NCBI RefSeq assembly: GCF_963921235.1
Contig: NC_086107.1
Span: 97,280,001-97,344,000, forward strand
DNA from: Mobula hypostoma
Taxonomy: Eukaryota
Length of the DNA stretch: 64,000 nt
Direction of reading: 5' to 3'
Below the pieces are notes generated by a model. It was given only the letters and a program-made list of their open reading frames with translations, was not told the origin of the DNA and ran no database searches. Shown here piece by piece: positions 1 through 9,990 of the stretch (within the stretch, counting starts at the first letter, position 1; each line of letters begins with the position of its first letter). Made by a program: the position numbers and the translations under genes.

Positions 1-544
1 TATTAATTCCTGATAGTTATCGACAGAGGAATTAATCCAATGTATGCTGCAGTGTTCTTTTGATTGACTGTAAATGAACAAAATCAGTGCAGATTCCTCA
101 TGCAGATGAACGCCTTCAGGCAATGCGTTAGACGACTGCATCCCCCCAAATCTTCATTTTCATTGTATCATTCAAGATGATTGTTGATGCCTTAAAATTC
201 TTTGTAGTTCCTAACTTATTGAAGTAGAAATCCTCTCGTTTTCACTCCTGGTCATTTCTGGTACCTGAATACTTGAAACTTCAGTGAGCAAAACAGTTCT
301 GAATTGACTTTCTGCTTATTAATAGTGACAAAAATCACTGCTTTTTGAACACAAACACAGGCAAGTGACGCTACGTAAAACTGTTCATTCTAAGCACGGT
401 GTAATCTTTAACGCCATGCGATGTGCACATGGCTGGCACTAGTTAGAAAATATACAGCAAAAGTTTCCTGTCCCAGTTAAGCGACATCGTGTCCCAAAGG
501 GAATCCTGGCTTTTTTTGTGTGTGCCATACTCTGCCACTTTGGC

Positions 545-768
545 GACTACTTTTTTGTTTCAAGCGGTTGTCTTGGAGGAAAGATTCTGTGAGTGGTCCC
601 CCACGTCCTTCTCACAGCGCAGTCTTTTTTTTTAATGAGGCCGAGTTGCAAGCTCGACACACAACCCGGCACAGATGGAAAGCGTGCCCGGGAGCGGCCC
701 GACTGGGTTCGAACTCGGGAACCTTCGCTCCAGAGTCCGGCGCTGATGTCACTGCACCACCAGCCGGC
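545..768 (-). mobile_element. tRNA-derived SINE (same family as 13282-13521)
   Basis: Minus strand starts GCCGGCTGGTGGTGCAGTGACATCAGCG...GAGTTCGAACCC (A box/B box). Body matches the + copy at 13282. Confidence 0.75.
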
Positions 769-810
769 GATTCCTGGCTACTTCCTTGATTTAATTTTGT
801 TCTTTAAGAG

Positions 811-1596
811 ATAGAAACATAGAAACATAGAAAATAGGTGCAGGAGTAGGCCATTCGGCCCTTCAAGCCTGCACTGCCATTCAGTATGATCATGGCTGAT
901 CATCCAACTTTCTCTCCATACCCCCTGATCCCTTTAGCCACAAGGGCCATATCTAACTCCCTCTTAAATATAGCCAATGAACTGGCCTCAACTGTTTCCT
1001 GTGGCAGAGAATTCCACAGATTCACCACTCTCTGTGTGAAGAAGTTTTTCCTCATCTCGGTCCTAAAAGGCTTCCCCTTTATCCTTAAACTGTGACCCCT
1101 CGTTCTGGACTTCCCCAACATTGGGAACAATCTTCCTGCATCTAGCCTGTCCAATCCCTTTAGAATTTTATACGTTTCAATAAGATCCCCCCCCACCAAT
1201 CTTCTAAATTCCAGCGAGTATAAGCCTAATCGATCCAGTCTTTCATCATGTGAAAGTCCTGCCACCCCAGGAATCAATCTGGTGAACCTTCTTTGTACTC
1301 CCTCTATGGCAAGAATGTCTTTCCTCAGATTAGGGTACCAAAACTGCACACAATACTCCAGGTGTGGTCTCACCAAGGCCTTGTACAACTGCAGTAGTAC
1401 CTCCCTGCTCCTGTACTCGAATCCTCTTGCTATGAGTGCCAACATACCATTCGCTTTTTTCACCACCTGCTGTACCTGCATGCCCACTTTCAATGACTGG
1501 TGTACAATGACACCCAGGTCTCGTTGCACCTCCCCTTTTCCTAATTGGCCACTATTCAGATAATAATCTGTTTTCCTGTTTTTACCACCAAAGTGG
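811..1596 (-). mobile_element. CR1 LINE, 5'-truncated 3' end (RT C-terminus + 3' UTR); resumes at 2579-2591 after a Rex1 insertion
   Basis: ORF 900..1742(-) contains HFGGKN...RDLGV...LYKALVRPHLEYCVQFW...RGHSL...FFTQRVVNLWNSLP, with an (ATAGAAAC)n tail at 811. Bases 2579-2591 read KCEV on the minus strand, the motif that precedes (I)HFG in CR1. Confidence 0.92.
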
Positions 1597-2578
1597 TTGG
1601 CAGACCACAGTACGTGTGCTTGCAACACTGTGTGTCCGACACAGTGATCAGCAGCACTGGGGCTCCACAGGGGACTGTCTTGTCTCCCTTTCTCTTCACT
1701 ATTTACACCTCGGACTTCAACTACTGCACAGAGTCTTGTCATCTTCAGAAGTTTTCGGATGACTCTGCCATAGTTGGATGCATCAGCAAGGGAGATGAGG
1801 CTGAGTACAGGGCTACGGTAGGAAACTTTGTCACATGGTGTGAGCAGAATTATCTGCAGCTTAATGTGAAAAAGACTAAGGAGCTGGTGGTAGACCTGAG
1901 GAGAGCTAAGGTACCGGTGACCCCTGTTTCCATCCAGGGGGTCAGTGTGGACATGGTGGAGGATTACAAATACCTGGGGATACGAATTGACAATAAACTG
2001 GACTGGTCAAAGAACACTGAGGCTGTCTACAAGAAGGGCCAGAGCCGCCTCCACCTCCCGAGGAGACCGAGGTCCCCCAACATCTGTCAGATGATGCCGA
2101 GGACGCTCCACGAGTCTGCGGTGGCCAGCGCCACCATGCCCGCCGCCGCATGCTGGGGCAGCAGGCCGAAGGCAGCAGACACCAACAGAACCAACAAACT
2201 CATTCGCAAGGCCAGTGGTGCCATGGGGACAGAACTGGACTCCCTGACGGCGGTGTATGAAAAGAGGACGCCACCCAAGCTGCACGCCACCCCGGACAAC
2301 GTCTCCCATCCACCACACAACGAACTGGCAGCCAGACACCCACCCCACCGAGACACAACACTGAGCGCCACAGGAAGCCAACCCCGCCTATGGCCAGCAA
2401 ACTCCACAACTCCTCCCCTGGCCGGTCCTGGACCCACCTCCCAGCATAATTTACATATTACCATTCAACCACTTATGGTTTCATTACTACTCAATTATTC
2501 ACGGTGCAACTGCAACGAACACCAATTTCCCTCAGGATCAATAAAGTATGACTATGACGACTATGACTACTATGACTA
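1597..2578 (+). mobile_element. Rex1/Babar-type LINE, 5'-truncated, 3' half T>C hypermutated
   Basis: RT motifs GAPQGTVLSPFLFTIYT, KFSDDSAIVG, LNVKKTKELVVD, YKYLG; AATAAA at 2540 and (ACTATG)n tail. Confidence 0.9.
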
Positions 2579-2699
2579 AACCTCACATTTAGAAGCTTTG
2601 GGGATTCTCCTAGAGCAACCTCATGCCTTTTCTCAGTCCTCCTAATTTGCTTCTCAAGTGTTCTCTAGCATTTCTTATACTACCAAATAAACAGCTGCC

Positions 2700-2738
2700 C
2701 TGATTAACCAATGGCACAGTTAACCAGATTCCACTGTA
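2700..2738. mobile_element. Probable Tigger/pogo-like DNA transposon end (possibly belonging with the relic at 1-500)
   Basis: Ends ...GTTAACCAGATTCCACTG followed by TA, a Tigger-like CAGTGGAATC terminus. The partner end is not identified. Confidence 0.35.
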
Positions 2739-3744
2739 TATATAAAAAAAATTTAAATGAATTAAGTAGTGCAAAAAGAGAGCAAAAACAGAGTGAGGTA
2801 GTGTTCGTGGGTTTGCTGTTGAGTCAGAAATCTGTTGACCGAGGGGAATAAGCGACTTCTAAAGCTTTGAGTGTGTGTCTTCTGGCTCCTGAACCTCCTC
2901 TCTGATGGTGGCTATGAGAAGAGGGTTTGTCCTGGGTGATGGAGGTCCTTAATGACAGATGCCGCCTTCTGTAGGTATCCCCAATGCTGGAGAGGCTAGT
3001 GACCATGATGGAACCCCTTCCTTCTGGTGGTTTCAGTTCCTTTCTACTGTAGCCATTTAAACTTAGTGCAATCCCAGCAAATGAATGAATTAACAGAGAT
3101 TCCAAGCTGACAGGGAGCTTTAGGAGAGTAAATAGGAGGTTTTTACCCGCACATCTGAGGATCTGGATGCCGAGTTAGTAGAAACCTTTGGGTGCTGGAA
3201 GAGGAGGAAATTAACAGGAGGTGGGACTCATTTATATGAATATAACTCTTATAAAAGTCAGGAGGAGTACTTGTCAACCTGAGCTCACCCTGTCATTCAA
3301 CAAGCTGCTGGAGGAACTGCGTGGTCAAGCTGCAACCATGGAGGACAAGAGATGGCCCACATTTCAGCTGGGGGCCCTGACCCACTGAGTCCCTCCAGCA
3401 GTTTGTTGTTTGTTTCAGGTTCCAGCATCCACAGCCTCTTGTGTCTTCTCCATTCAACAAGATCACGGCCGATTTACCTCAACCCTCACTTTTCTGGACT
3501 ATCCCAGTATCTTCCAATTCCTCTGACATCCATAAATCTATCAACCTCGAGATTTAACTCCAACAGTGGCTGAGGCTCCAGAACTACCAGGATAAGTAAT
3601 GCTAAAGGAAACTTACCTCAGCATTAAGTGGCTTCCCCTCAATCAGGGGAAACACCCTCTTTATCCTCAACTCATTGAATCCTCTATCTCAGGGCCTAAT
3701 AACCTCCCGTGACCTGTGCACTTTCATGAACTAATTCAAGAATC

Positions 3745-4475
3745 AGAAACAGGTTTATTATCACAGACATATGTCATCAACTGTGTTGTTTTTGCATTGT
3801 GTTAAAATTACCAGAAATTACAGTAAGAATATGTAAAAAGTCTAGAAATAGAGCAAGAAGCGATCAAAGTAGTGAGGAAGAGTTCATGGGTTTGTGGACC
3901 ATTCAGAATTCTGATGGGGGCGGGGAAGAAGCTGCTGATGAATCATTGCGTGTGTCTCTTCAGCCTTCTGCACCACCTCCCTCATGGTAGTAATGAGACG
4001 AGGGCTTGCCCAGGATGATGAGGCTCCTTAATTATGGATGACACCTTCCTGAGGCATCACCTGTTGAAGATGTCCTCAATGGTGGGGAGGATAGTACCCA
4101 TGATGGAACTTGTCTACAACCCTCTGCAGCTTTTTTCATCCCTGTGCAGTGGCCCTTCCAGACTAGACACTGATGTAACCAGTCAGAATGCTCTCCAAGG
4201 TACATCTGTAGAAATTTGCTACTGTTTAGTGACATGCCAAATTTCCTTAAACTTCTAATGAAATGTAACCATCGGTATGGCTCCTTCATAATTTCATTAA
4301 TATATCAGGCCCAGGATAGATCATCTGAGATATTGACACCTAGAAATTTGAAGCGGTTCGTCCTTTCCATTGCTGATCACTCGATGAGGACTGGTGTGTG
4401 TTCTCCCAATTTCTTCTCCCTGAAGTCTACAGTCAGTTCTATGGTCTTGCTAATGTTGAGTGCAAGGTTGCTGTT
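3745..4475 (-). mobile_element. Degenerate Rex1/Babar-like LINE 3' fragment (a shorter one lies at about 2745-3010)
   Basis: Minus-strand peptide LHFIRSLRKFGMS with frameshifted continuation. Terminal AATAAACCTG(A)TTCTGA-type tail shared with other copies in the window. Confidence 0.7.
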
Positions 4476-9518: not shown

Positions 9519-9922
9519 GTGTTTGTGCGTGTTTGTGTGTGTGTGTGTTTGTGAATGTGTGTGAATGTGTGTGTGTGTGTGTGAATGTGTGTATGTGTGT
9601 GTGTGTTTGTGTGTGAATGTGTGTGTGTTTGTGTGAATGTGTGTATGTGTGTGTGTATGTGTGTGTGTGTGTTTGTGTGTGAATGTGTGTGTGTGTATTT
9701 GTGTGTGTGTGTGTTTGCGTGTGTGTGTATTTGCGTGTGTGTGTGAATGTGTGTATGTGTGTGAATGTGTGTGTGTGTGTGTGTGTGAATGTGTGTGTGT
9801 GTGTTTGTGTGTGTGTGAATGTGTGTATGTGTGTGTGTGTGAATGTGTGTGTGTGTTTGTGTGTGTGTGTGTTTGCGTGTGTGTGTTTGTGTGTGTGTGT
9901 GAATGTGTGTATGTGTGTGTTT

Positions 9923-9967
<45 letters not shown>

Positions 9968-9990
9968 TGAGTGTTTCTGTGTATGCGTGA
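9519..9990. repeat. Compound (GT)n microsatellite with GAAT/TAT/TTT interruptions
   Basis: Seen directly; it explains the HT/CV-repeat ORFs. Confidence 0.95.

Follow-up and report, generated by a model that had tools for sequence, protein, structure and literature searches.

A single-copy, strand-specific T>C tract in a Rex1 element nested antisense within a CR1 element of Mobula hypostoma, with a probable origin in ADAR-type deamination

Two nested retrotransposons without long terminal repeats (non-LTR) occupy positions 811-2591 of a 64,000-nt stretch of the Mobula hypostoma genome (assembly GCF_963921235.1, contig NC_086107.1, positions 97,280,001 to 97,344,000 of the forward strand); this whole stretch is referred to here as the window, and all coordinates are counted from its first letter. 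One is a long interspersed nuclear element (LINE) of the CR1 type on the minus strand, and the other is a LINE of the Rex1 type on the plus strand; we take Rex1 and CR1 to be the proper names of the two families, for which the database names are generic only. The Rex1 copy carries a strand-specific tract of T>C changes, with a neighbour-base bias, that is single-copy and old. Rex1 references for the comparisons below were related proteins and contigs of public sequencing runs matched at 80% likeness; X1 and X2 are contigs of organism A, which may be the source sample, and X9 denotes organism C.

The CR1-type element is represented by its 3' part (811..1596, minus strand), which comprises the C-terminal part of open reading frame (ORF) 2, from the HFGG motif to a stop near 900, followed by the 3' untranslated region (UTR) and a tail. 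The tail (811..835), read directly in the sequence, consists of short tandem repeats with an 8-nt unit and is the end where the CR1 reverse transcriptase (RT) would begin; the two features by which a CR1-type LINE is recognized, ORF2 C-terminal homology and a 3' tail of 8-nt repeats, are both present. The minus-strand ORF at 900..2006 encodes CR1-type protein from ~1596 downwards. The CR1 side of P0262 has 19 protein matches (66-94% identity, batoid and shark), many of them with PF00078; P0262 itself has no Pfam family assignment, because the CR1 RT core lies upstream of the break. In X1 the depth steps from 75,658 (681-761) to 1,173,162 (762-842) at the CR1 tail, and the summed depth over the CR1 is 1.2-3.4 million. 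One relative, P0280, is filed under a bacterium (Aeromonas) and is 75% identical to the fish CR1 segment; it is probably host DNA in a bacterial assembly.

A first-pass annotation of the window had placed a break in the CR1 at 1596 and a resumption of ~13 bp at 2579-2591, and the loose ends of CR1 paralogue contigs (72 in X1, 71 in X2), from which the continuation was read, agree. Past 1596 the paralogues continue for 2 nt and then enter a stretch in which 12 of 13 letters are those of window 2579-2591; beyond 2591 window and paralogues part. It follows that the CR1 is broken at 1596/1597 and picked up again for 13 nt (2579..2591, minus strand, codons K-C-E-V), up to its end at 2591. This remnant marks the 5' end of the CR1 copy; its sole mismatch is at 2582, where the window has C and the paralogues have T. 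Read in the CR1 direction, the order is antisense Rex1 and then, directly, an intact CR1 3' part with its tail. No convincing target-site duplication was seen by eye around 811-2591.

The Rex1-type element (1597..2578, plus strand) is 5'-truncated and antisense to the CR1; it retains the C-terminal half of the RT, the end of the ORF, the 3' UTR, and a tail, with a reading frame at 1599-2576, and its paralogues extend upstream of 1598 (X9, 67 loose ends). Short tandem repeats at the 3' end and a 5' truncation of the kind typical of target-primed insertion are both present. Pfam RVT_1 matches residues 15-130 of the copy (E 2.3e-08); of 1437 candidate proteins, 757 are Rex1-type RT relatives at E<=0.001, and the representative library contains 29,976 such relatives. 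The copy divides into an unaltered part (1597..2051), a hypermutated tract of dense T>C on the plus strand (2052..2440), delimited by base counts and by comparison with paralogues and proteins, and a nearly unaltered 3' UTR and tail (2441..2578), in which 6-nt tandem repeats run from ~2547 to 2578.

The closest Rex1 protein relatives, P0021 and P0090, are from a stingray. P0021 is a protein named 40S ribosomal protein S24 isoform X1 that has a Rex1-type C-terminal half, and the name is a database artefact. Outside the tract, 7 of 101 aligned residues set the Rex1 copy apart from P0021 (~93% identity; hand count); within it, the alignment places P0021 RLYFLRRLRSFN...MLRMFYES.VASAIMFAVVCWG against RLHLPRRPRSPN...MMPRTLHESAVASATMPAAACWG in the Rex1 frame of the window, and the family motif given in the first-pass annotation agrees with the real relatives (P0021). 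After the HN.L motif, P0090 and the window copy are in the same frame, shifted with respect to P0021 and the teleost relatives; to judge from the reading frames, a frameshifted Rex1 subfamily probably predates the hypermutation. PF09004 (ALKBH8_N) matches this LINE segment in most relatives, including P0021 at 193-232, and is absent from P0001, the protein of the Rex1 copy. By alignment the segment after the RT is present, though hypermutated; the match is lost because of the hypermutation, and its loss is no evidence against homology.

The tract stands out in base composition. Counts of T reported earlier, 90/360 in 1681-2040 and 35/360 in 2041-2400, were exact on recount; the full counts are A98 C73 G99 T90 and A96 C136 G93 T35, respectively, so that T versus C differs between the two 360-nt stretches (Fisher p=6e-11) and A versus G does not (p=0.84). 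Across the 64-kb window, T falls to 10% or less in 4 of 6365 overlapping 360-nt intervals, all four starting at 2021-2051. The tract itself (2052-2440, 389 nt) has T 41 and C 152, as against 95 T and 84 C in an equal length directly before it, with A and G unchanged, which implies about 54-68 T>C changes. At its left edge the last kept T before A is at 2028 and the first change at 2052; at its right edge inferred changes stop at 2404 and a T before A or T is first kept again at 2447, after which T makes up 41 of the 132 bases of 2447-2578. The dense T>C tract described earlier is thus real, but its length, put at ~480 nt, is ~390 nt, from 2052 to ~2440. All three codon positions are affected by T>C; at third positions the tract has 7 T and 41 C, the upstream stretch 33 T and 36 C, and since these positions are also changed, the pattern reflects mutation and not selection. 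GC content climbs to 0.69 in the tract, and CpG dinucleotides number 23 there as against 5 upstream.

Comparison with related sequences gives the direction of change. Base changes were derived from the protein relatives as the smallest codon changes that account for each difference. Against P0021, 34 of the 97 codons of 2041-2340 differ, and T>C makes up 28.0 of the 39 inferred base changes, followed by G>A with 4.0 and seven further types, A>G included, with 1.0 each; in the control stretch 1599-2040, where P0021 is partly non-homologous, T>C accounts for 2.0 of about 62. With P0090 as reference, T>C is 29.0 in the tract versus 1.0 in the control, and 9.0 of 16 changes in 2337-2415; with three references of greater distance, T>C is again the top class in the tract, at 25-28. 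When only T residues inferred for the reference at codon positions 1-2 are considered, 24 of the 54 in 2041-2340 are kept, 29 have become C, and 1 has become A; this proportion of T to C (29/54) compares with 0/41 in the control 1740-2040, where all 41 inferred reference T are kept (p=5e-10).

The DNA comparison gives the same result. Where paralogue loose ends could be read by hand against 2052-2081, 2133-2150, and 2218-2247, 24 of 78 positions differ (20 T>C, 3 G>A, and 1 A>G), and over the whole 2401 nt compared with X1 there are 59 places with C in the window and T in the other sequence, and 24 of the reverse. Among the 17 places of difference listed (229 more exist), 12 at 2052-2502 have C in the window and T in the paralogues, those at 2218, 2223, 2231, and 2273 are of other types, and a C-for-A difference falls at 2520, just outside the tract; among the rows listed for the unaltered Rex1 part, only 1642 and 1700, together with half of the depth at 1757, differ from nearly all organism A paralogues. 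The isolated C-for-T places listed beyond the tract (2492, 2500, and 2502), like that at 2582, may be a thin fringe or ordinary differences. Protein and DNA comparisons therefore agree with the earlier proposal that T>C on the Rex1 sense strand, equivalent to A>G on the CR1-sense strand, is one-directional, and the few A>G changes of that strand (1.0 versus 28.0) do not offset it. One mismatch type, on one strand, in a dense cluster is the pattern by which ADAR hyper-editing is recognized, and it is the pattern found here.

The changes also depend on the neighbouring base. Of the 35 surviving T in 2041-2400, 3 precede A or T, as the first-pass annotation had counted; the corresponding figures are 38 of 90 for the upstream stretch (p=2.4e-4) and 7618 of 16779 for the window as a whole. 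For direct counts, sites were used at which both the reference T and its neighbour are known from loose ends or unambiguous codons, with site 2340 excluded for doubtful alignment. On the plus strand, 9 of 10 T followed by T, 3 of 3 followed by A, and 3 of 9 followed by C are changed; T before A or T is thus changed at 12 of 13 sites versus 3 of 9 for T before C (p=0.0066), a contrast that rests on small numbers and on a reference partly inferred from proteins. T followed by G is changed at 8 of 13 sites at the DNA level, but this class is unrankable because edited sites become CpG, which decays back to TG or on to CA. By preceding base, changed T number 6 of 12 after C, 9 of 17 after G, 6 of 11 after A, and 3 of 5 after T, a comparison of low power with editing near saturation. 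A bias in the direction expected of ADAR is thus present: on the complementary strand, the change is A>G, strongly favoured after U or A and disfavoured after G, as in the ADAR motif. Depletion of G directly upstream of the edited A is likewise a feature of the hyper-editing motif described by Porath 2014.

Depth of matched sequence in organism A bears on whether the C-rich version belongs to a family of its own. In X1 the depth is ~0.8-1.2 million over 1572-2057 (~1.06 million in the bin 1977-2057) and drops ~1000-fold at 80% likeness in the tract, to 1948 (2058-2138), 1235 (2220-2300), and 752 (2301-2381), with 444,597 in the bin 2139-2219, a T-poor stretch in the family, and a recovery to 325,447 at 2463-2543. 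Because of this drop, the C-rich version is not a multicopy Rex1 subfamily, one of the outcomes against which the earlier interpretation had asked to be tested. Exact organism A contigs (X1, X2) cover 2177-2550 with 0 differences at a depth of 10-13. No exact organism A contig is listed for 2058-2176, a gap that is not probative; organism B spans the stretch. At 2077 all matched organism A depth reads T. Organism C (X9) has depths of 14-1576 in the tract bins and no long piece among those listed. The T>C-type signature occurs in 1 of the 261 family proteins at hand, the window's own, with a score of 13.0 and the next at 6.3, and a near-length protein search returned no edited siblings or orthologues. 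P0053, P0086, P0113, and P0166, considered as edited members on account of A>G-type scores of 6-7 at 20-21 mismatches, were rejected, the mismatches being mostly conservative exchanges.

A second organism carries the same tract. Organism B contigs match 2040-2190 with 5 differences, 2177-2550 with 14 and an insertion of 26 nt behind 2419, and, to the right of the tract, 2568-2712 and 2699-2908 with 3 each, at a depth of 31-52 that resembles that of the flanks. The 26 extra nt are an insertion or deletion between the lineages, inside the end of the Rex1 ORF. This orthologue differs at 19 of 548 matched positions (~3%), and the assembled contigs concur with the window sequence across the tract; the tract therefore goes back to a single old event in the germline and is no error of assembly, the edits are fixed in germline DNA as had been proposed, and the hypermutation was complete before the organism A and B lineages split. 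All three G>A differences directly follow a T>C, giving TG to CA at 2149/2150, 2222/2223, and 2230/2231, and at 2273, right after an edited C, organism B has G where the window has A; CpG sites made by T>C have therefore decayed since. Of the earlier interpretation, a one-directional, single-copy, germline-fixed set of T>C changes with an ADAR-like bias stands. It passed three of the four refuting tests proposed with it; for the fourth, which called for raw reads, assembled contigs were compared, and they agree.

It is likely that these changes arose through ADAR-type adenosine deamination, by whatever route, on the strand complementary to Rex1 mRNA. Sense-strand A>G is not seen, so Rex1's own (sense) RNA was not the edited strand, and we infer that the enzyme, an RNA carrier, and retrotransposition of a chimera are most likely as follows. 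An RNA in the CR1 direction would have been transcribed from a CR1 already holding a nested antisense Rex1, and the antisense-Rex1 part would have paired with Rex1-sense RNA, either from an inverted fragment in the same transcript or in trans. ADAR would then have hyper-edited the duplex in one burst over ~390 nt, changing a little over half of the adenosines, with few of those behind a U or an A escaping; if the paired fragment was short, the sharp ends of the tract would be accounted for. The CR1 RT would have copied the edited RNA from the CR1 3' tail, reading inosine as G, to give a new copy (811-2591) that ends 13 nt past the Rex1, with the edits fixed in germline DNA. As a complete chain, from CR1-direction RNA with antisense Rex1 through ADAR editing to retrotransposition via the CR1 tail, this account is offered tentatively, at somewhat under an even chance. 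Placement of an antisense Rex1 directly before the CR1 3' end raises its likelihood, by our own estimate, about ten-fold over chance placement. Neither a second Rex1 copy nor an inverted partner is found on either strand of the 64-kb window: blastn returns the self match only, and tblastn for Rex1 yields three weak RT matches (32-37% identity) to other LINE types. This fits editing before arrival at the locus.

Several observations weigh against retrotransposition of an edited CR1-Rex1 chimera. The layout that it calls for is present, but an ordinary nested insertion of Rex1 into a resident CR1 gives the same layout, and the 13-nt CR1 remnant calls for the same coincidence whether CR1 carried the Rex1 or a Rex1 complementary DNA (cDNA) was edited, so that it does not discriminate between the two. 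Positions 1597-2051 and 2447-2578 are nearly untouched, although a full-length Rex1 RNA acting in trans would pair with all 982 nt, and a CR1 whose RT the Rex1 had disrupted would depend on enzyme supplied in trans. ADAR1 editing of L1 RNA was undetectable in a cell assay (Orecchini 2017). Enrichment of G at the 3' neighbour is not found (T after C is changed at 6 of 12 sites compared with 29 of 54 overall), avoidance of 5' G is partial, with 3 of 9 T before C still changed, and CpG decay leaves the T-then-G class (8 of 13) without a rank. Among called proteins, which make for a weak search, none spans a junction (41 candidates gave 19 matches, each confined to the CR1 side) and no edited sibling occurs among short proteins (2 matches among 8 candidates, both unedited). 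The 15 contig joints listed, of 501, include no junction bearing on a source or sibling locus.

A different substrate would be the DNA itself. Rex1 could have inserted itself by target-primed reverse transcription into a resident 5'-truncated CR1, with ADAR deaminating the hybrid of first-strand cDNA and RNA, or a later R-loop, and second-strand synthesis reading deoxyinosine as G to give sense-strand T>C; we regard this as unlikely. It yields the right strand polarity with neither a chimeric RNA nor a source locus, it agrees with the lack of a chimeric-junction sibling among the proteins searched, and the neighbour bias and density fit it as well as they fit carriage by CR1. In vitro, ADAR2 does edit DNA that is hybridized to RNA, and its preferences there are unchanged (Zheng 2017); such editing would convert deoxyadenosine (dA) to deoxyinosine on the RNA-paired cDNA, exactly the polarity seen here. 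The activity is known in vitro only, and it is slow and confined to few sites per substrate, at a rate ~20-fold below that on RNA duplex (0.02 versus at least 0.4 per min; Zheng 2017). We found no precedent for change of more than half of dA over 390 nt in vivo, and no natural retroelement case of DNA-strand editing in a hybrid was found in the literature searched. Furthermore, the sharp tract ends lie inside what would be a continuous hybrid and are left without explanation, and the antisense position right upstream of an intact CR1 3' end would be a matter of chance, estimated at a few percent to 10%. That the scar was made on DNA specifically by ADAR or another adenosine deaminase acting on Rex1 first-strand cDNA:RNA during germline target-primed reverse transcription is held to be distinctly unlikely.

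No deaminase would be needed if the Rex1 RT had misincorporated dG opposite U along one part of its sense RNA, for example in a local shortage of dATP. Sense-strand T>C follows directly from such an error, rU:dG is the commonest wobble mispair, and biased nucleotide pools during reverse transcription are reported to yield U>C hypermutants in vitro. The scale of change, with ~54% of T and 12 of 13 T before A or T altered, is nevertheless far above known polymerase error rates, the tract ends sharply within one cDNA with 0 of 41 control T changed, and the dependence on the 3' neighbour matches the 5' preference of ADAR; to our knowledge, no such neighbour rule applies to misincorporation, and this explanation is improbable.

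Processes acting on DNA after insertion, namely GC-biased conversion, transcription-associated asymmetry, or gap filling with a WA bias by pol eta, are a good deal less credible, to the point of being very improbable. The rise in GC content to 0.69 would suit them, and the pol eta WA motif resembles the neighbour bias found here. Yet A and G are unchanged (98/99 versus 96/93) and A>G is rare (1.0 versus 28.0 for T>C), which excludes GC-biased conversion; the flanks within the same element are almost identical to the family, and organism B already has the tract, with 19/548 differences, so the process did not continue. Sharp ends, intact flanks, and a state common to organism B together exclude a slow local process, and pol eta error rates, a few percent per T, are far too low. 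That the C-rich stretch is a normal Rex1 subfamily, a lineage mosaic, or an assembly or sequencing artefact is scarcely conceivable in view of the ~1000-fold depth drop at 80% likeness, the signature in 1/261 family proteins only, the independent contigs of a second organism that carry the tract, and differences of one type only; cytidine deamination, considered as a cause, was rejected since it cannot make T>C.

Deaminase footprints in other systems offer partial parallels. During persistent infection, measles virus acquires biased U>C changes on the coding strand that are attributed to ADAR on the complementary strand, a coding-strand change from the complementary strand of a duplex as in the Rex1 tract; an RNA polymerase can take either strand as template, whereas for a LINE only the strand with the 3' recognition end is copied. 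APOBEC3-hypermutated retroelements, reportedly also described by Carmi in 2011, resemble the tract in their dense cluster of one mismatch type relative to sibling copies and in deaminase attack during copying. Endogenous retroelements with APOBEC3 G>A hypermutation are known as deaminase fossils (Zaranek 2010); there, C is deaminated on minus-strand cDNA and the sense strand shows G>A, in contrast to the sense T>C seen here.

ADAR-type clusters are also on record. Avian retroviruses with A>G hyper-editing (RAV-1, Felder 1994; avian leukosis virus, Hajjar and Linial 1995), as summarized in Piontkivska 2021, are like the present case in that clusters on retroelement RNA became fixed in DNA via reverse transcription. 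Those are exogenous viruses and somatic or cell-culture proviruses, whereas the element here is a non-LTR LINE whose changes are germline-fixed and common to two organisms, and, unlike in the avian retroviruses, the edited strand is antisense to the scarred element. In transcripts, inverted repeat pairs are hyper-edited, with antisense repeats the usual substrate (Porath 2014); dense A>G over hundreds of bases with G depleted one base upstream is common to these and to the Rex1 tract. They differ in that such editing, as presented there, affects RNA only and leaves DNA unchanged, whereas here the pattern is in DNA, and in that G is enriched downstream, with no such enrichment and no partner repeat in the 64-kb window here (Porath 2014). 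Full-text literature searches, which mostly do not cover subscription journals, listed no earlier description of an ADAR-type scar in a LINE copy of any genome.

Other repeats lie in the same window. A moderately repeated element on the minus strand at ~625-780 (X1 depth 28,000-76,000), with a GC-rich head and an A-run tail, resembles a short interspersed nuclear element by eye; no tRNA was found by ARAGORN over 500-900 and no Rfam match at E<=0.1 over 400-3200. Two same-orientation copies of another repeat, at 2764-3014 and 3845-4108, are 69% identical over 267 nt. The stretch of the window poorest in A, at ~9520-9975, is a long (TG)n-type microsatellite with interspersed TGAATG units.

Deaminase scars in retroelements are the main record of past conflict between hosts and mobile DNA, and so far that record consists essentially of the work of cytidine deaminases (G>A). 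The Rex1 tract is a clean adenosine-type scar in a LINE, germline-fixed in a cartilaginous fish lineage and old enough to be common to two organisms, and it shows that a template with heavy A deamination can be integrated to the end and passed on to offspring. Such tracts also destroy domain matches, as with PF09004, create CpG-rich islands, and can mislead the calling of repeat subfamilies. The antisense polarity forces a choice between a LINE co-mobilised in the RNA of another LINE and a cDNA deaminated in an RNA:DNA hybrid, the latter not known from nature. If the scar was made on cDNA, it would be a natural adenosine counterpart of APOBEC3 restriction and natural evidence of DNA editing by ADAR in hybrids, and hypermutated LINE copies genome-wide would show sense-strand T>C whatever their neighbours.

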